Source: a virus. From it: 43,329 bases of DNA. Below are positions 2,366-24,234 of the stretch, piece by piece. The stretch's first letter is position 1; every line of letters starts with the position of its first letter. A program made the position numbers and the translations under genes. Location of the stretch: UHGV virus genome UHGV-1380059; one strand, written 5' to 3'. The notes under the pieces were generated by a model that was not told where the DNA came from, searched no databases, and was given only the letters and a program-made list of their open reading frames with translations.

Positions 2366-2548
2366 TTAAATCACCTTCACTATTCTAACTTGTTTTAGTG
2401 TATATCCTCGTAATTTATAATGTTGAGCCAGCTTCTTTATGCTATATACATCTATAGGTACATCGTACATATCCCTTACCCATTCTCCTTTATCGTTCAA
2501 TACTTCTATGGCATACGTGTGCTCTGAATGTCTACCAACAGTATACAT
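2366..2548 (-). CDS. hypothetical protein (60 aa)
   Basis: ORF track; RBS GAAGGAGGA upstream. Confidence 0.45.
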   Translation of the reverse strand: MYTVGRHSEHTYAIEVLNDKGEWVRDMYDVPIDVYSIKKLAQHYKLRGYTLKQVRIVKVI

Positions 2549-2549
2549 C

Positions 2550-2642
2550 TTAATATCCTCCTTCTTCTAACCAGTGTATAAGTACTCCAGCTCCGTAAAT
2601 TACTACTCCAATAAATAATAACCCCATCATCATAAATGTCAT
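2550..2642 (-). CDS. possible 30-aa hydrophobic peptide
   Basis: Manually read 'MTFMMMGLLFIGVVIYGAGVLIHWLEEGGY' with GAGGGAGGA upstream; its stop abuts the next start. Confidence 0.3.
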   Translation of the reverse strand: MTFMMMGLLFIGVVIYGAGVLIHWLEEGGY

Positions 2643-2727
2643 TTTTAATTCCTCCCTCTCTATGAATTAATAATACCATGATAAAAAAAGAAAGTCAACA
2701 GATAATGTCAACTTTCTTTAAAAAATA

Positions 2728-2946
2728 TTAAAGTTTATCTGACCTTGTGATTGATACAATATTGTTAACATTCATCATGACATAATATTTATATGTTCCC
2801 ATTCCCACTAGGTCTTTTTCGTGTTCAATAAACATTGTTGCTTCTCCTAAATTTATTGTACGTGCAAATGCTTCAATCAAATCTTCCTCAGTTTCTACTA
2901 CAAATGGTTCTGTTGAATTAGTTGTGTAAATTAAATATTTATTCAT
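2728..2946 (-). CDS. hypothetical protein (72 aa)
   Basis: ORF track; RBS GGAGGAATAGG. Confidence 0.5.
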   Translation of the reverse strand: MNKYLIYTTNSTEPFVVETEEDLIEAFARTINLGEATMFIEHEKDLVGMGTYKYYVMMNVNNIVSITRSDKL

Positions 2947-2957
2947 TCCTATTCCTC

Positions 2958-4544
2958 CTACTGGATATCGTTAAAAATGTTCACGTACTCTGTCCCTGCT
3001 AATGCGTTCATTAAATATGGTCTGATCGACTCATTGTCTCCATTGCGTGCAATCTTTAGACCAGTGAGTACACGTGCTTTACTTGTCCGTTTTTCTTCAA
3101 AACCTTGTTTAAGTAATAATTCTTTCATGGTACGCCAGTTCATTGATTTATTAATATTATTCTCTTTCGTGTACACATTAAAAATATTCTTCAATAGTGT
3201 TAGGTTAACAGTGCCTTCTTCATCCTCTACAATTACAGGTACTTCACTCAAAAACTCTTTAGATGGGTCATTTGATTCAATGTAAGCTTTCTTGAATGCA
3301 ATCATATCTTCTGTTTCTGTGAATGGGTTTTCACCATTTGTGCCTGCGTCTAAAATCTTTTTGAACTGTTGAATACAGAACCATGCAAACTTACCTAACT
3401 GCTCTTTTGACTCCCGTTCTTCACGTTGTTTGTTAAACTCATTAATGCGCTCACGTGCTTCTGGTGTGTCAAGATTGGTGTTGAAGTTTAGAATTAGAAT
3501 ACGTCTATACCATCCGTTTGTGCGGTCGTTAAAGGCTGGTAACTCATTCATGGAGAACATTAATTTCGCATAGTTGGTAAAACTAAATGCATCTTTTCCT
3601 TTTTTCTCTGCATGAACGGCATCAAGACCTCCTGAAAGTTTTTTCAGTGTCTCAGTACCCTTCACAAAGTTGGCGCTTGAATCCGCTTCAAAGTTCAGTA
3701 ATTTATGGTGTAATGAAGCTTTGTCAAAACGATTGTTTTTATCTGCTAAGCTGTCTAGACCAACTGCTGAGCTATTTTTGAACCCAATTAATTTGTTCAT
3801 AATAAAACCACCTACATAAGACTTACCATTTGACCCATTACCTAAGAGGTATAAAATAGATTGATATTTGTACTCTCTATAATACATGTAACCAATGTAC
3901 TCATATAATGTCTGAGCTTGGTCTTTTAGTAGATAGTCAATCCATTGTTTAGCTAGTAATTCATCTGTCTCATCTGTTTTAATTAACGGATAAGGTAGTT
4001 GAAGGGTATGATAATCTTCTAACCTAGTCTCTCTAATGTCATTTGTCTTAAAGTCATATGTCCCATTTTCAAAGGCAATAATGTTTGGGTTAGGGTTGTC
4101 ACCTAGTGGTGCATGTTCTCCACGTGTCATGGAGCGATTAGCTAACTCAGGAGCTAATTTCTTCATTTCTTTGCGAATTTCATTCCCAAACTCTGGGTTT
4201 CTAAATTGTGGTGTAAATTTTGGCGCTAAAATATTTTCAAAGTACCAATCTGAATATTTGTAACTACCTAGGTTTACCTCAGACCAGATACGTGTGTCTG
4301 CGTTGTAGACGTATGGAGCGTTTAAATTAGGGTGGGCGTACACATAGGCTAGCTGGTTAAATTTATCAATAAATAATTCCTGTTGAATCTCAAATTTGGC
4401 TTGAGTGCCGTCTTTGCCACCGTAGTACATTCTTCCTACTTCTGAATTGAAGTCCACAAATTCCTCACTTGGAAAGTTTTTATTTGAAACAGGTAGTAAT
4501 TCCTCAACTGGTGCTGAATAATCTATTTTCTTTAGTTCATTCAT
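2958..4544 (-). CDS. DNA primase/helicase, D5/P4-type SF3 NTPase domain
   Basis: Walker A 'LLGNGSNGKS', Walker B 'LLNFEADSS', and a long D5_N-like N-terminal region; 528 aa. Confidence 0.75.
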   Translation of the reverse strand: MNELKKIDYSAPVEELLPVSNKNFPSEEFVDFNSEVGRMYYGGKDGTQAKFEIQQELFIDKFNQLAYVYAHPNLNAPYVYNADTRIWSEVNLGSYKYSDWYFENILAPKFTPQFRNPEFGNEIRKEMKKLAPELANRSMTRGEHAPLGDNPNPNIIAFENGTYDFKTNDIRETRLEDYHTLQLPYPLIKTDETDELLAKQWIDYLLKDQAQTLYEYIGYMYYREYKYQSILYLLGNGSNGKSYVGGFIMNKLIGFKNSSAVGLDSLADKNNRFDKASLHHKLLNFEADSSANFVKGTETLKKLSGGLDAVHAEKKGKDAFSFTNYAKLMFSMNELPAFNDRTNGWYRRILILNFNTNLDTPEARERINEFNKQREERESKEQLGKFAWFCIQQFKKILDAGTNGENPFTETEDMIAFKKAYIESNDPSKEFLSEVPVIVEDEEGTVNLTLLKNIFNVYTKENNINKSMNWRTMKELLLKQGFEEKRTSKARVLTGLKIARNGDNESIRPYLMNALAGTEYVNIFNDIQ

Positions 4545-8768: not shown

Positions 8769-9161
8769 ATGCCTAAACGTAAGTGTGCAGTGGCTTCATG
8801 TCGCGCATATGTCACGCTACCTGAGCGCTACTGTGACGCACATCAAGGGTATAACAATAGCCAGTACAATAAGCACGTAAGATACAACGAAGACAACAAG
8901 AAGTACAGTACCTTCTATCATTCAACCCAATGGAGGAACACACGTAAAGCCAAGCTAATGGAGCAACCACTATGTGAGGTATGCTTGGCACAAGGCAAGT
9001 ACACCAACGCTAACATGGTTCACCATAAGATAGAATTAAGAAGTCCAAATGGATGGAAACATAGACTTGATTTAAATAACTTAGAGTCAATCTGTTACGA
9101 GTGTCACAACAAGGAAGAACATAGCTACAGTTGGAAAAATAGAGGTAGAGAACAGCGTTAA
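8769..9161 (+). CDS. HNH endonuclease, classical family, terminase-associated in cos-type phages
   Basis: 'CEVC...HHKIEL...N...ICYECHNKEEH'; positioned upstream of TerS/TerL. Confidence 0.8.
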   Translation: MPKRKCAVASCRAYVTLPERYCDAHQGYNNSQYNKHVRYNEDNKKYSTFYHSTQWRNTRKAKLMEQPLCEVCLAQGKYTNANMVHHKIELRSPNGWKHRLDLNNLESICYECHNKEEHSYSWKNRGREQR

Positions 9162-9511
9162 ATCAACAACCGCGCAGACAAAATTATTTTTAGGGAGACC
9201 CAAAATGTTTTTACCCCCCCTACCTTTTTATAACGAATTAATCGCTGCCCCCTCTTCTTCGCATAAAAGTCCCAAAACCAACTTTGAAAAACGTCCTTTT
9301 CCCTCGTAAAACGTCATTAAAACCTGGTTTCTTGTGTCTAAAATCAAGGCTTACCACTATATGTAGTGTTATTTCCCTTTAACGATTTATCCCCCAATAA
9401 ACATGATTGAAGCTGGTTTCTTTACACAAGATTCTTTTTATATGATATAATAAAACTATATAAGGGATTTTTTGTTTAACTCAAAACTAAAAGTAAGGGA
9501 GGTAGAAACAC
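9162..9511 (+). other. Putative cos / packaging-initiation region
   Basis: 350 nt noncoding with C-tracts ('ttacccccctacc', 'gctgccccctcttc', 'tttatcccccaat'). Short direct repeats: 'CTGGTTTCTT' x2 and 'aaaacgtc' x2, plus an inverted 'cttgtgt/acacaag'. Lies between the HNH and TerS, as in HNH-cos phages. Confidence 0.3.
9454..9462 (+). promoter_or_regulatory. extended -10 promoter TGaTATAAT
   Basis: 'tatgatataat'; no recognisable -35. Confidence 0.4.
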
Positions 9512-9697: not shown

Positions 9698-9753
9698 TTG
9701 ACAACCTCCTTTATTTGTGCTATTATAATAGTATGGAAGAGGAGGTTTTATTT

Positions 9754-10257
9754 ATGAAAGAAATTTGGAAAGATGTAGAAGGATATGAAGGGTTGTATCA
9801 AGTAAGTAATTTTGGTAATTTATATTCCAGCTACGTTAAACGTAAATTACAATTGAGTTTAGATAAATATGGATACAAACAAGTGATACTTGTAAAGAAC
9901 GGTGTTCGTAAACGACACCTTTTACATCGTATGGTAGCACAAGAGTTCATACCAAACCCTGAAAACAAACCACAAGTTAATCATATTGACGAGAATAAAA
10001 CAAATAATACTGTATCAAACCTAGAATGGGTTACAAGTAAAGAGAATATTAATCACGGAACTAGAACAGAACGACAAATATACACTCAAAGAATTATTCA
10101 AAAATCAAAGCCTGTTATTTGTTCAAATGGCGTGATTTACCGTAGCACAAGGGAAGCTAGTAGGCTATTAGGATTAGATAATGGTAGTTTAAATAAAGTT
10201 CTAAAAGGTAAGCGTAAAACAGTAGGAGGCTACACATTCAAATATAAGGAGGTGTAA
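9754..10257 (+). CDS. HNH homing endonuclease (NUMOD4 + HNH_3)
   Basis: 'MKEIWKDVEGYEGLYQVSNFG', 'HRMVAQEFIPNPENKPQVNHIDENKTNN', 'ENINHG'; the start is the ATG at 9754 with GAGGAGG upstream. Confidence 0.8.
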   Translation: MKEIWKDVEGYEGLYQVSNFGNLYSSYVKRKLQLSLDKYGYKQVILVKNGVRKRHLLHRMVAQEFIPNPENKPQVNHIDENKTNNTVSNLEWVTSKENINHGTRTERQIYTQRIIQKSKPVICSNGVIYRSTREASRLLGLDNGSLNKVLKGKRKTVGGYTFKYKEV

Positions 10258-10262
10258 TCATT

Positions 10263-10724
10263 ATGAGACCACGTAAGCTCTTGAATGCAACGAGCAAACA
10301 CTTAACAACTGAAGAGCGTGAAGCAAAAGAAAAAGAAGAAGAAGTACTTTATAACTATGAGAAGCTAGACTTCAGTTTCTATCCACCAGGTCTATTACCA
10401 CAAGCATTTAATGAATGGGATCGTATTGGAGCATATGTAGGCGATTTACCTATTTCTGAATTAGATGTTAATACAGTTATTAGATATTGTAACTACAATT
10501 ATTTATACGCAGAAGCAGCAGAGAAAGTAGCTCAGATGGGCGCAATTGACCCTGAGACAGGCAAAGCCAACCCATGGGTAAATGCTATGAACTCCTATTC
10601 AAAAGAGCTTAAAACTGCCACGAATGACTTAGGGTTAACAATCAACTCAAGACTAAAAATAGTTTTACCAGCAGAGAAAGAAAAAGAAGTACTTGACCCA
10701 TTTGCAAAAATGTTTGAAGGATAA
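10263..10724 (+). CDS. terminase small subunit (P27-like)
   Basis: 153 aa immediately upstream of TerL; 'LTINSRLKI' region typical of P27-family TerS. Confidence 0.7.
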   Translation: MRPRKLLNATSKHLTTEEREAKEKEEEVLYNYEKLDFSFYPPGLLPQAFNEWDRIGAYVGDLPISELDVNTVIRYCNYNYLYAEAAEKVAQMGAIDPETGKANPWVNAMNSYSKELKTATNDLGLTINSRLKIVLPAEKEKEVLDPFAKMFEG

Positions 10725-10746
10725 CCTACACAAAAAATAAATTGTG

Positions 10747-10755
10747 TGATATAAT
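10747..10755 (+). promoter_or_regulatory. extended -10 promoter TGaTATAAT
   Basis: 'tgtgatataat'. Confidence 0.4.
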
Positions 10756-10814
10756 TTGTATAGCAAATGAGTGGTAATCATTAGATACACCAATAACACA
10801 AAAGTCGGATTTTG

Positions 10815-10823
10815 TGTTATAAT
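10815..10823 (+). promoter_or_regulatory. extended -10 promoter TGtTATAAT for the TerS-TerL intergenic RNA
   Basis: 'tgtgttataat'; the predicted start is near 10830. Confidence 0.45.
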
Positions 10824-10829
10824 AGAGTC

Positions 10830-11130
10830 ACTAGTACACGTGACACCCACTGATATTCAAGGATATTATGTGCAACATACGTGGCAATAAATCGTGGTTC
10901 ACCACACTCCACGTAAAAAAGGGTTGCTGTTAGGATATTCTAGAATATCCAATGAACAGTCGTGGACGGCACACGTAAACGACCGCTCGCCACAGTATCT
11001 GGCGGATAGTGTGATAGTATGACCCTACTTGACGACGAGCACACTAAAGCGACCATACACTTAAAGTAGGGCGTGTATATTCGCAGATACTAACCTCCCA
11101 CTAGTCTAGCTAACTAGTGGGTCTTTTTTT
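10830..11130 (+). ncRNA. Candidate ~300-nt structured noncoding RNA between TerS and TerL
   Basis: GC-rich island (about 50% against ~35% elsewhere) with no ORF. Local helices at 10827-10844, 10933-10950 (18-bp palindrome 'GGATATTCTAGAATATCC') and 10988-11004, and a long-range 8-bp helix 11023-11030/11074-11081. Ends in a strong terminator. Confidence 0.4.
11097..11130 (+). terminator. intrinsic terminator
   Basis: 'cccactagt ctagcta actagtggg' + 'tcttttttt'. Confidence 0.7.
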
Positions 11131-11131
11131 G

Positions 11132-11140
11132 TGCTATAAT
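11132..11140 (+). promoter_or_regulatory. extended -10 promoter TGcTATAAT upstream of TerL
   Basis: 'gtgctataat' 32 nt before the ATG at 11173. Confidence 0.45.
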
Positions 11141-11172
11141 ATAATTGACTAGCATAAAAGGAGGATACATAA

Positions 11173-12945
11173 ATGTTTGATCCAGTACAAGATTATATAG
11201 ATTTAATTGAAAAAGGATATGTAGAAGGTAAAAAATACGTGGTTGAAGATGGGAAATATAAGACAATTAAAGTGGACATTCGTGTAGGAAGTAAAATTAA
11301 AAAAGCGATTGAACGTCACCAAAAAGAAGTTGAGTTATCTAAAACTCCAGATTATCCCTATATTTATAGACCAGAAGAAGCGCTTCCAGTAATTAAATTC
11401 ATGGAAATGCTACCTGATCCCAAAAGTCGTAAGCCAATGAAGCTAGCTACTTTCCAAAAATTCATTATTGGTTTACTATATGGATGGCGTAAAAAGAGAG
11501 ATAATACTAGACGTTTTAGAAAAGCATACATCTCACTAGCACGTAAGAATGGGAAGTCTTTAATCGTAGCAGGTATTGCCTTATATGAGTTTTTATTTGG
11601 CAAGAATCCAGCCGCAAGCCGTCAAGTAGTAGCGGCAGCGAATACAAAAGAGCAAGCTGGAATCGTTTTCAGAATGCTCAAATCTCAGCTAACAGCATTG
11701 CGTAGTGTATCAAAAGAAGTGAAGAAACGAACAACCGTTCGTAGATATGATATTGAAGCTAGCGATGAATCAACCGTCAAACCATTATCAAGTGACGCAG
11801 ACACTCTTGATGGATTGGACGTTTTGTGTGGTATCCTAGATGAGTATGGTGAAGCTAAAGATACTAGTATCATTGAAGTATTAGAATCATCACAAGCACA
11901 ACAAGTGGAAGGATTAATTCTAATGATTTCCACAGCCACAAAGAATCTGAACGGCCCAATGTTTACGATAGATTATGCCTTTGTTGAAAAGTTACTGGAT
12001 GAAGATGTTAAAGCAGATGCCTATCTAGCATTATGTTGGGAAATGGATAGTCTACCAGAAGTTGATGATGAAGCTAACTGGATAAAGGCAAACCCTTTAC
12101 TAGAAATACCAGAAGCATATGAATCAATGATGGAACACAAACGCAACTCACTAGACGAATATAAGGGTAAAATGGATTTATCTGGTTGGTTAACAAAAGA
12201 GCAAAATTTCTGGGTACAATCATCCAAAGATAGTTTTGTAACCAAAGAAGAATGGGATGCAGTTAAAGCACCTACTAATTACAATATTAGAGGTAGAAAA
12301 GTATATATTGGTATTGACTTAGCCAGAACCTCAGATATGACCGCAGTTTCATGGATTATTCCAATAGAAGAAGAACACAAACTATTACTAGATACACATG
12401 GTTTCGTATCATCAGTAGGAGGTATTGACCATAAGCAGTCAATTGACAAAATACCGTATAGGCAATATGAGTCAATGAACCTCATTCATATTTCCCAACG
12501 TGAGGATGGTCTGATTGATACAGAAGAAATGTGTGACTGGATACGTGACTTTATAGATTATAATGACTTGCAATTGGCGGGCATTTATTATGATCCATTT
12601 ATGATGGACAAAGCTTTGATTAATCTAAGTAAAACATATCCCAAAAAACTAATTGAAGTACCGCAGAAAATTAACTATTTATCTTCACCAACAAGAGCGC
12701 TGCGTGAGTTAATTCGTAGAGGTGAAGTGATGCACACCAACAATCCTTTATTGAATCGTGCGGCATACAATGCTATGATTAAAGAGTATAATGATAGCGT
12801 TGCTATTGATAAGCAAATAAACAGAAATAAAATTGACTCACTTGATGCCATTATAAACGCAATGAGTGACGCTCAATATCATGATTATGACGCTCCAACA
12901 TTGCAAGATTTACTAGATACTGGAGAGTTTGGCTTTGGTTACTAG
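11173..12945 (+). CDS. terminase large subunit
   Basis: 590 aa, Terminase_1-like, with an N-terminal ATPase and a C-terminal nuclease region; RBS AAAGGAGGA. Confidence 0.9.
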   Translation: MFDPVQDYIDLIEKGYVEGKKYVVEDGKYKTIKVDIRVGSKIKKAIERHQKEVELSKTPDYPYIYRPEEALPVIKFMEMLPDPKSRKPMKLATFQKFIIGLLYGWRKKRDNTRRFRKAYISLARKNGKSLIVAGIALYEFLFGKNPAASRQVVAAANTKEQAGIVFRMLKSQLTALRSVSKEVKKRTTVRRYDIEASDESTVKPLSSDADTLDGLDVLCGILDEYGEAKDTSIIEVLESSQAQQVEGLILMISTATKNLNGPMFTIDYAFVEKLLDEDVKADAYLALCWEMDSLPEVDDEANWIKANPLLEIPEAYESMMEHKRNSLDEYKGKMDLSGWLTKEQNFWVQSSKDSFVTKEEWDAVKAPTNYNIRGRKVYIGIDLARTSDMTAVSWIIPIEEEHKLLLDTHGFVSSVGGIDHKQSIDKIPYRQYESMNLIHISQREDGLIDTEEMCDWIRDFIDYNDLQLAGIYYDPFMMDKALINLSKTYPKKLIEVPQKINYLSSPTRALRELIRRGEVMHTNNPLLNRAAYNAMIKEYNDSVAIDKQINRNKIDSLDAIINAMSDAQYHDYDAPTLQDLLDTGEFGFGY

Positions 12946-18265: not shown

Positions 18266-18272
18266 CCACTAG

Positions 18273-18299
18273 ACCTAGTCTTAATTGACTAGGTTTTTT
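18273..18299 (+). terminator. intrinsic terminator
   Basis: 'cctagtc ttaatt gactagg' + 'tttttta'. Confidence 0.65.
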
Positions 18300-18322
18300 A
18301 TTTGCACAAGTAAGTGAATCTA

Positions 18323-18331
18323 TGTTATAAT
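18323..18331 (+). promoter_or_regulatory. extended -10 promoter TGtTATAAT
   Basis: 'tatgttataat'. Confidence 0.4.
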
Positions 18332-18972: not shown

Positions 18973-19638
18973 ATGACAGTATTAGTGTATGAACATATTA
19001 CGCCTAATGAGAAACGATATATAGGTATTAGTAAAAATATACATGAACGATGGAGAAAGCATGGACTAAGTTCATCATATAATAAATATTTTACAAAAGC
19101 GGTTAAAAAATATGGGTGGGATAATATAGAACATAATATTATAGCTATATGTGATACTTATGAAGAAGCGTGTAATATAGAAATTAAATATATAAGTATA
19201 TTTAATAGTACAGACCCACGTTTTGGATATAATATAACTCAAGGTGGAGAGTTACTAACTGGGGAAAACCATCCTGCGTTTGGTAGGTTTGTCAATAAAG
19301 ATGAACGACGTAGACGAAGTATTAAGGCTAAAGAAGTGTTTAAAAATAGGGATTATACTGGAAAAAACAACAGCTTTTATGGTAAGCAACATAGTGATGA
19401 GACTAAGCGTAAAATAGGTAAAGCTAACTCAGGTAAACGTAGTGATGAATATAAACGTAAAATGGCAGAAGTATTGGGTACACCAGCATTCAACATATAC
19501 TATAACGGTGAGTACATTGAAACAATGTATAATCAATCTGAGTGCGCTAGAAAATATAACTTACATGTAGCATCAGTCAATAGGTGTTTACTTGGTAAAC
19601 AACATACAACAAACGGATATACTATCAAACCAGTGTGA
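18973..19638 (+). CDS. GIY-YIG homing endonuclease with NUMOD3 repeats
   Basis: 'VYEHITPNEKRYIGISKNIHERWRKH' (GIY-YIG), and 'NHPAFGRF' / 'NSFYGKQHSDETKRKIGKANSGKRSDEYKRKM' (NUMOD3-like). Confidence 0.8.
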   Translation: MTVLVYEHITPNEKRYIGISKNIHERWRKHGLSSSYNKYFTKAVKKYGWDNIEHNIIAICDTYEEACNIEIKYISIFNSTDPRFGYNITQGGELLTGENHPAFGRFVNKDERRRRSIKAKEVFKNRDYTGKNNSFYGKQHSDETKRKIGKANSGKRSDEYKRKMAEVLGTPAFNIYYNGEYIETMYNQSECARKYNLHVASVNRCLLGKQHTTNGYTIKPV

Positions 19639-19656
19639 TTAAAACACTGGTTTTTA
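19631..19656 (+). terminator. intrinsic terminator
   Basis: 'ccagtgtg attaaaa cactgg' + 'ttttta'. Confidence 0.6.
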
Positions 19657-19665
19657 TGTTATAAT
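19657..19665 (+). promoter_or_regulatory. extended -10 promoter TGtTATAAT upstream of the tape measure gene
   Basis: 'tatgttataat'. Confidence 0.4.
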
Positions 19666-24186: not shown

Positions 24187-24198
24187 TATTTATGTATA

Positions 24199-24222
24199 AA
24201 GGTGGTTCACAGCCACCTTTAT
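24199..24222 (+). terminator. intrinsic terminator
   Basis: 'aaggtgg ttcacag ccacctt' + 'tatttgtg'. Confidence 0.55.
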
Positions 24223-24225
24223 TTG

Positions 24226-24234
24226 TGTTATAAT
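24226..24234 (+). promoter_or_regulatory. extended -10 promoter TGtTATAAT
   Basis: 'gtgttataat'. Confidence 0.4.

Follow-up and report, generated by a model that had tools for sequence, protein, structure and literature searches.

The terminase locus of an Enterococcus siphophage

The window analyzed here, the whole 43,329-nt stretch of virus genome UHGV-1380059, represents a virulent Enterococcus siphophage, with its genome in circularly permuted form. The deposited genomes nearest to it are those of IME-EFm5, vB_GEC_Ef_S_9, the KEN18-22 phages, dArtagnan, Aramis, IME-EFm1, and 9184, with 80-90% DNA identity around the terminase genes. The genes of the small (TerS) and large (TerL) terminase subunits, recognized by their domain matches (Table 1), are separated by a gap of 448 nt, in agreement with the first-pass annotation, which had put the distance at about 450 nt and had placed in it a dedicated gene for a structured non-coding RNA. 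All related phages have a long stretch between TerS and TerL, and it is unannotated in nearly all records. We found no paper on this locus in the literature. An I-HmuI-type homing endonuclease gene (9715-10257; NUMOD4, HNH_3, and I-HmuI NUMOD-like domains) lies between a small ORF and TerS, and is missing at this position in IME-EFm5, IME-EFm1, and 9184. DELF1 and, by sequence, L088 have a similar endonuclease gene, placed after the RNA terminator and before TerL.

The GC-rich island in the gap had been described as free of ORFs. The longest ORFs of the whole gap encode 42 and 39 aa (+ strand) and 38 aa (- strand), and none is conserved. We rejected protein coding since the ORFs vary between phages and none is kept among relatives. 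The two sequence types of the core domain described below have the same conserved bases and different reading frames on the - strand. Two deposited annotations cover the RNA region with small ORFs: one of 130 aa on the minus strand in KEN18 (2594-2986), and six of 29-37 aa across 2499-3165 in KEN21. They are absent from the other phages and are probably spurious. ARAGORN identified no tRNA or tmRNA. The GC content is 46.2% over 10889-11096 against 35.2% in the window, which is within the top 0.9% of 208-nt windows, with peaks of 0.48-0.52 in 100-nt windows. The GC island is therefore real, at 46% over some 200 nt, but the earlier figure of about 50% over 250 nt was somewhat generous. The minimum free energy is better than that of shuffled sequences on both strands (z-scores: + strand, -3.4; - strand, -3.2). 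Because these values are so similar, thermodynamics alone is not decisive. The covariation described below is.

The cohesive end of IME-EFm1 was experimentally mapped and has a 9-nt 3' overhang (PMC4445525). This overhang and its flanks match the - strand of the window at 9223-9251 with one mismatch (GGGGCAGCG, the published overhang being GGGTCAGCG), which gives the + strand overhang CGCTGCCCC at 9243-9251 and implies that the window is a permuted complete genome. The cos site lies in a non-coding stretch of 350 nt (9162-9511) that also has a promoter at 9423-9451. The reading of the gap as a cos or pac site was rejected, since the cohesive end is 1.5 kb upstream of it. The suggestion that the gap might be a cis-acting packaging element is unlikely for the same reason, and also because the core is absent or truncated in relatives whose TerL is 83-98% identical.

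Table 1. Coordinates of the features at the TerS-TerL locus (positions in the window).
Feature	Position	Strand	Description
HNH protein ORF	8769-9161		
TerS	10263-10724		Pfam Terminase_4 match
TerS-TerL gap	10725-11172		448 nt
Promoter P1	10727-10755	+	TACACA, 17-nt spacer, TG-extended TATAAT; extended -10 TGATATAAT at 10747-10755
Small hairpin AATGA/TCATT	10766-10782	+	Promoter P1-transcript segment; read from sequence
Promoter P2	10793-10823	+	Extended -10 TGTTATAAT at 10815-10823
5' irregular hairpin	10837-10883	+	Stacked helices 10837-41/10879-83, 10844-46/10870-72, 10851-57/10862-68
A-run stem-loop unit	10890-10925	+	GTGG...CCAC, AAAAAA, then GGGT
Variable-length hairpin GCTGTT/AACAGT	10926-10960	+	Alignment A4
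Perfect palindrome, 18 nt	10933-10950		GGATATTCTAGAATATCC; apical extension of hairpin 10926-10960
Small stem-loop CGTG/CACG and tail	10961-10985	+	Tail TAAACGACCG
Core domain	10986-11091	+	106 nt; three hairpins, two tertiary helices
Core helix P1	10988-92/11000-04		
Core helix P2	11009-13/11040-44		
Core helix P4	11049-60/11073-84		
Loop-tail pseudoknot	10994-10999/11086-11091		Helix P1 loop AGUAUC with 3' tail GAUACU
Kissing helix	11023-11028/11066-11071		Helix P2 loop CCCUAC with helix P4 loop GUAGGG
Intrinsic terminator	11097-11130	+	9-bp stem (11097-11121), 7-nt loop, T-run
TerL promoter, extended -10	11132-11140	+	TGCTATAAT; kept in all relatives
TerL	11173-12945		TerL_ATPase and TerL_nuclease domain matches

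A conserved frame of promoters and terminator

The two extended -10 promoters previously proposed for the RNA were both found in place. Promoter P1 begins 3 nt past the TerS stop codon, matched 10/12 positions with TG in the promoter scan, and is kept in nearly all relatives whatever the sequence downstream, including L085. Together the two promoters form a 28-nt direct repeat in which P2 is the duplicate (75% identical). A perfect 11-bp hairpin (10793-10803/10810-10820) overlaps promoter P2. The fresh promoter claimed for TerL is also there, and is followed by an RBS (11157-11164) and the start codon. The motif TGNTATAAT is found in the gap at 10747, 10815, and 11132, and occurs 15 times in the window where 4.3 occurrences are expected, a number that none of 100 shuffles reached.

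The strong terminator predicted at the end of the unit is likewise present, with its stem and T-run. The stem has compensatory changes at two positions across relatives, and the record of phage 9184 annotates a terminator at the corresponding site. The elements conserved nearly everywhere are the first ~30 nt (promoter P1), the terminator (CCCACTAGTCTAGCTAACTAGTGGG and the T-run), and the TerL promoter with its RBS. Since promoters and terminator were called from consensus matches plus conservation, it is on these grounds that the gap has what is expected of an independent sRNA gene, i.e. its own promoter and its own intrinsic terminator, both conserved.

Composites in which the T-run of a terminator passes directly into an extended -10 (TGNTATAAT) are found at 11097-11140 and at least three more times in the structural operon, at 18271-18331, 19627-19665, and 24196-24234, with terminator and promoter at 18271/18323, 19627/19657, and 24196/24226. 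The structural operon thus looks punctuated into re-initiating units. As these composites are the normal punctuation of the phage, TerL would have its own start and be independent of read-through, and the RNA unit would be insulated from it.

A core domain supported by covariation

The block adjoining the terminator is present in most E. faecium-type relatives, and its structural model was drawn after paired substitutions had been noticed by eye. It consists of three hairpins (helices P1, P2, and P4) and two tertiary helices, a loop-tail pseudoknot and a loop-loop kiss. In a first alignment of 16 sequences, 94.6% of the cells were paired and 14 pairs had changed on both sides, whereas sliding the 3' partners by 1-3 columns left only 23-48% of the cells paired. 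We built a covariance model (R1), which scores the core of the window at 123.5 bits, and gathered further copies of the core from IMG/VR and metagenomes. Among the resulting 31 distinct homologues, 94.2% of the core cells are paired (20-55% in the slid controls). Compensatory changes affect 15 of the 34 pairs, in a sample that represents a narrow clade with two main sequence types and their recombinants, so that the independent events number perhaps a dozen. None of 500 shuffles matched the observed values.

Each of the five core helices has at least one compensatory pair. In the loop-tail pseudoknot an A-U pair became G-C in vB_EhiS_268, and in the kissing helix AC/GU alternates with CU/AG among relatives. 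The core contains G·U in 37 cells at 13 positions, and A·C in only 6 cells at 2 positions. This excess indicates that the structure is selected on the + strand, which is the strand of the promoters and of the terminator. A nested consensus proposed by RNAalifold for the core (31-33/106-108 and 40-43/96-99 in alignment A1) was rejected since helices P2 and P4 and the kissing helix explain more of the covariation. Covariation among homologues, which the first-pass annotation had named as the check on its helices, supports the helices found here in the core and in the 5' hairpin.

One genome, vB_Efm8_KEN21, has two complete cores in tandem (2878-2982 and 3032-3136), which represent the two sequence types. 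Compensatory changes distinguish them in every helix, and the kissing pair is CCCTAC/GTAGGG in one and CCCTCT/(A/T)GAGGG in the other. Copies that differ in this way would not cross-pair within one transcript.

Other RNA modules in the gap

The remainder of the unit is a series of smaller folds. The small hairpin of the promoter P1 transcript is kept in the relatives carrying the segment specific to this promoter. In the 5' irregular hairpin all cells are paired in an alignment of five sequences (A5) that includes the Efquatrovirus phages phiSHEF2 and vB_EfaS-271, where the slid controls give 20-57%. Two of its pairs are compensatory and two others are invariant G·U pairs, which fit the + strand. 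The covariation support for this hairpin is modest, as a single clade split is involved.

The A-run stem-loop belongs to a family of units of roughly 33-38 nt with a short G-rich tail, present in one to three copies in relatives. Its stem covaries between subtypes (AGAGG/CCTCT and AGTGG/CCACT). The unit may form an H-type pseudoknot, with a loop-tail helix of only 3 bp (CAC/GTG, CAG/CTG, AAC/GTT, or ACC/GGT), a length at which chance complementarity is likely. The IMG/VR contig 3300045988_072413 (L078) has a tandem array of 2.1 A-run units of 34 nt at 2188-2259 (AATAGAGGTTTACAGATCCTACCAAAACTGGCTT), and after it comes a third unit, diverged from the others, that immediately precedes the core. 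TRF identified no tandem repeats in the window between 10700 and 11200.

The 18-bp perfect palindrome that had been noticed at this locus is the tip of the next hairpin. The base of this hairpin is kept in alignment A4, with G·U in nine sequences and A-U in four. Its apical part varies from 7 to ~23 nt among relatives, the palindrome of the window being the longest tip. The small stem-loop that follows is kept in most relatives, with one compensatory variant (CGTT/AACG in L025). From 10890 to 10985 alignment A4 shows no covariation because the sequences are too similar: the stretch is nearly invariant among the 13 phages that carry this segment.

A long-range helix had also been claimed, for which the candidate is probably 10821-10835/11113-11127. 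The two arms are 80% complementary. This pairing between the 5' end and the terminator was set aside since the 5' arm, compared by eye, is not conserved in IME-EFm5. The long-range pairings backed by covariation are the loop-tail pseudoknot and the kissing helix of the core.

Several relatives (L002 at ~1700-1990, L010, L012, L013, and others) have a further block of ~170-300 nt that the window lacks. In this block there is a hairpin whose loop, AGUUGGAAACCUUA(A/G), is invariant while its stem occurs in three different covarying forms (GUGAG/CUCAC, GACGG/CCGUC, and AGGAG/CUCCU). This block is probably another structured module of the cassette.

Shuffling of modules within the lineage

The TerS-TerL interval ranges from 399 to 785 nt in the deposited genomes examined first and from 174 to more than 900 nt in the IMG/VR relatives, the latter range spanning phages with 83-98% identical TerL. 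The largest intervals also contain an inserted ORF or an endonuclease gene. The alignment of the gaps is a mosaic, with a series of variable blocks between the conserved parts of the frame. The shortest case, L085 (83% identical TerL), lacks the core: its interval of 174 nt comprises promoter P1, a single hairpin, the terminator seen in the window, and the TerL promoter. In L086 (TerL of both at 83-84% identity) the core is replaced by other cargo. In L088 (98% identical over a partial TerL match) a deletion removes half of the core and fuses the A-run unit to the second half. Several metagenomic contigs carry one and a half or two cores. As close relatives keep the promoter and the terminator but lack, truncate, or duplicate what lies between them, the core is dispensable cargo and, judging from these genomes, is not needed for terminase function.

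Outside a narrow group of Enterococcus siphophages the core motif was not found. Its pattern had no match in 185,579 bacterial genomes, and the gap sequence had no meaningful match in 72,556 plasmids. In the Efquatrovirus sister clade (phiSHEF2 and others) the frame and the block of the 5' hairpin recur, but the non-coding sequence is otherwise different. The gap of this type is a mosaic common to 111 phage records. In phiSHEF2 it measures 536 nt (907-1442) and consists, by eye, of two successive units of promoter, structured sequence, and terminator. Both terminators are built on GACTTAGN...CTAAGTC, and only the first hairpin is common with the window. EF36P1 (2905-3165) and L086 (~2080-2340) carry an insertion after the RNA terminator, an 86-aa ORF that has its own RBS and is followed by a second TerL promoter copy. 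This ORF has the look of a small accessory gene ("moron") inserted in the same hotspot.

Comparison with known RNA families

We searched the locus with Rfam 15, whose families include ROOL, GOLLD, pRNA, ToxI, EAR, riboswitches, and small ribozymes. At the gathering thresholds there were no matches in the whole window or in 15 related loci, and at E<=1 there were none in 7 loci. At E<=10, with the gap alone as query (window and KEN18), only scores far below the gathering thresholds were obtained. The idea that the RNA belongs to a known class of large phage RNAs thus found no support, since no family, ROOL and GOLLD included, was matched at the threshold or at permissive E-values. The only riboswitch-like trace is that of PreQ1-I (RF00522) on the A-run unit, with 15.3 bits against a gathering score of 39. 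With its short stem-loop, its A-run, and the brief complementary stretch downstream, the unit has the outline of the H-type pseudoknot of this riboswitch, but it is followed by no regulated gene. PreQ1-I had no match in the sister units of KEN18, and the annotation of the related phage 9184 contains no queuosine genes.

A study of viral metagenomes described 14 candidate structured RNAs ("csRNAs") located consistently upstream of a putative large terminase family (PMC10690425). Like these candidates, ROOL, and GOLLD, the gap RNA is phage-borne, non-coding, and rich in conserved hairpins and pseudoknots backed by covariation. Unlike ROOL and GOLLD, it is built of exchangeable modules, is confined to one lineage of Enterococcus siphophages, and is shorter, measuring ~300 nt in the window. 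By comparison with Rfam 15 it is a previously undescribed RNA family, unless it should be one of the 14 candidates of PMC10690425.

Type III toxin-antitoxin systems offer another comparison. In the tenpIN operons of E. faecium, tenpI is made of non-identical repeats that form H-type pseudoknots with a conserved adenosine stretch and lie between a promoter and a terminator (PMC12283969). Phage PhiTE escapes ToxIN through an RNA mimic, pseudo-ToxI (PMC3475682). The gap RNA shares with ToxI, CptI, TenpI, and pseudo-ToxI the promoter, the A-rich stem-loop units, which may be of pseudoknot type and are tandem and diverged in some relatives, and the rho-independent terminator. It differs from ToxI, CptI, and TenpI by the lack of an adjacent toxin gene (TerL lies downstream), by the single unit in the window, and by the lack of sequence or model similarity. 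Moreover, its dominant structure, the core, is not a repeat.

The packaging RNA of phi29, pRNA, is essential and belongs to phi29-like podophages that lack TerS. The likeness lies in a phage RNA of ~120-170 nt with covarying loop-loop complementarity, in a phage with an ATPase packaging motor. However, a pRNA, as a required part of the motor, would be expected in all phages with that motor, whereas the core is missing from phages with the same terminase (L085 and L086) and half deleted in L088, and pRNA gave no match in our Rfam scans. Similarly, an RNA element of processive antitermination (put of HK022, EAR) would be expected in all genomes that have the downstream operon with its terminators, and no such shared module was found here.

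A proposed trans-acting accessory RNA and its alternatives

The conserved promoter and terminator around variable contents, the covariation of the core and of the 5' hairpin, and the asymmetry of the G·U pairs bear out the proposal of a dedicated non-coding RNA gene as opposed to a spacer. Our preferred reading, which we hold with moderate confidence, takes the TerS-TerL gap for a self-contained gene whose product, a structured + strand RNA, acts in trans as an accessory factor and has a binding partner, most plausibly a protein. The conserved frame, the dispensable and exchangeable cargo, the compact tertiary folds with conserved unpaired nucleotides, and the restriction to virulent phages all point to this role. 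The anatomy and conservation of the locus, the structure and strand of the RNA, and the dispensability of the core are results of this analysis, whereas we infer the transcription of the RNA, its action in trans, and its binding to a protein or service as a decoy. Transcription by the sigma-A RNA polymerase of the host would begin at promoters P1 and P2, the tandem extended -10 sites, and end at the intrinsic terminator, giving predicted transcripts of ~370 nt and ~300 nt, respectively, and TerL would be transcribed from its own promoter just behind. The RNA would be a string of separate folds: the 5' hairpin, the A-run unit, the variable-length hairpin, the small stem-loop, and the 106-nt core, with its three hairpins tied by the loop-tail pseudoknot and the loop-loop kiss. 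Promoter and terminator make up a conserved frame within which modules are gained, lost, duplicated, and exchanged in the lineage. The RNA would be non-essential and control neither TerL nor packaging. It would most likely work as a high-copy, nuclease-resistant ligand or decoy of a host or phage protein, e.g. a component of host defence or RNA turnover. We identified no antisense target within the phage, i.e. no complementarity of at least 13 nt except for the promoter repeats. The fixed position between TerS and TerL across the whole lineage is not explained by a purely accessory trans-acting RNA.

This fixed position is one of the arguments for a cis-acting leader of the late operon, in which a phage or host factor recognizing the RNA would make the polymerase read through this terminator and the later ones, in the manner of lambda N/nut, HK022 put, or EAR, and so time or boost the expression of TerL and the structural genes. 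The element heads a 20-kb structural operon on the + strand, directly before a strong terminator, and the operon has several more intrinsic terminators, some of them annotated in phage 9184. Yet each of these terminators, including the one ending at 11130, has its own extended -10 promoter right behind it, and no module is common to all phages with the late operon, given the single hairpin of L085, the other cargo of L086, and the different RNAs of the SHEF2 clade. The spacer between core and terminator varies and can contain an extra hairpin, so no overlap able to form an antiterminator exists. As no Rfam family matches either, we find the leader fairly unlikely. As a specific form of the accessory reading, it is quite doubtful that the A-run units, and perhaps the core, imitate type III RNA antitoxins and, when over-produced, keep a host endoribonuclease toxin neutralized. 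The resemblance to tenpI is architectural only, being judged from published descriptions: a promoter, diverged stem-loop units of ~34 nt, arrayed 2.1 times in L078, and a rho-independent terminator. E. faecium does have tenpIN operons with antitoxins described in like terms (PMC12283969), RNA mimicry by a phage has a precedent (PMC3475682), and the gain and loss of modules would fit an arms race. But the window has a single unit, no tandem repeat, no toxin gene after the terminator, and no similarity to plasmids or Rfam families. The second pseudoknot helix, of 3 bp, lacks statistical support, and the best-supported structure, the core, is not repeat-like.

The two 6-bp tertiary helices could in principle form between molecules and lead to dimers or rings, as in phi29 pRNA or the cages of ROOL and GOLLD, and the assembly would then serve a structural purpose or one connected with packaging. 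Both helices, loop-loop and loop-tail, covary, the gene adjoins those of the terminase, and the tandem cores of KEN21 differ at every helix, the kissing pair included. Nevertheless, sequence alone cannot separate intramolecular from intermolecular pairing, the Rfam scans gave no pRNA, ROOL, or GOLLD match, and the core is missing from phages whose TerS and TerL are nearly the same, which makes self-assembly very improbable in our view. We give hardly any credence to an element acting at the level of DNA, be it a TerS recognition (cosB-like) site, a recombination hotspot, or the decayed remnants of a mobile element, whose hairpins would be incidental. The region does adjoin terS, is a mosaic with many indels, and has a homing endonuclease gene and small inserted genes nearby in relatives. 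Against this, the match to the mapped IME-EFm1 termini puts the cohesive end 1.5 kb upstream, the compensatory changes maintain pairs of both kinds, nested and pseudoknotted, G·U is in excess in a strand-specific way, and the promoter and terminator are conserved around the element. The accessory trans-acting RNA could also be taken further, in a speculation that we deem unlikely: the gap would be the RNA counterpart of a protein anti-defence island, i.e. a fixed promoter-terminator slot with shuffled pseudoknotted modules, among them the antitoxin-like A-run units and the core, each a decoy or inhibitor of a different host system that is RNA-guided, RNA-cleaving, or causes abortive infection, such as tenpIN of E. 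faecium.

Implications

What sets this locus apart from ordinary cases is a well-supported double-pseudoknot core together with a cassette-like shuffling of modules in a fixed promoter-terminator frame. As a new RNA family with a compact fold, it is tractable for structural work and pull-downs. It also gives content to a region of 0.2-0.9 kb that is unannotated, or filled with spurious small ORFs, in nearly every deposited genome. These phages are candidate agents for treating infections with vancomycin-resistant E. faecium, and if it is true that the cargo affects host range or the evasion of defences, the locus would be relevant to the choice and engineering of therapeutic phages. More generally, these results suggest that phages may diversify non-coding RNAs much as they do accessory proteins.
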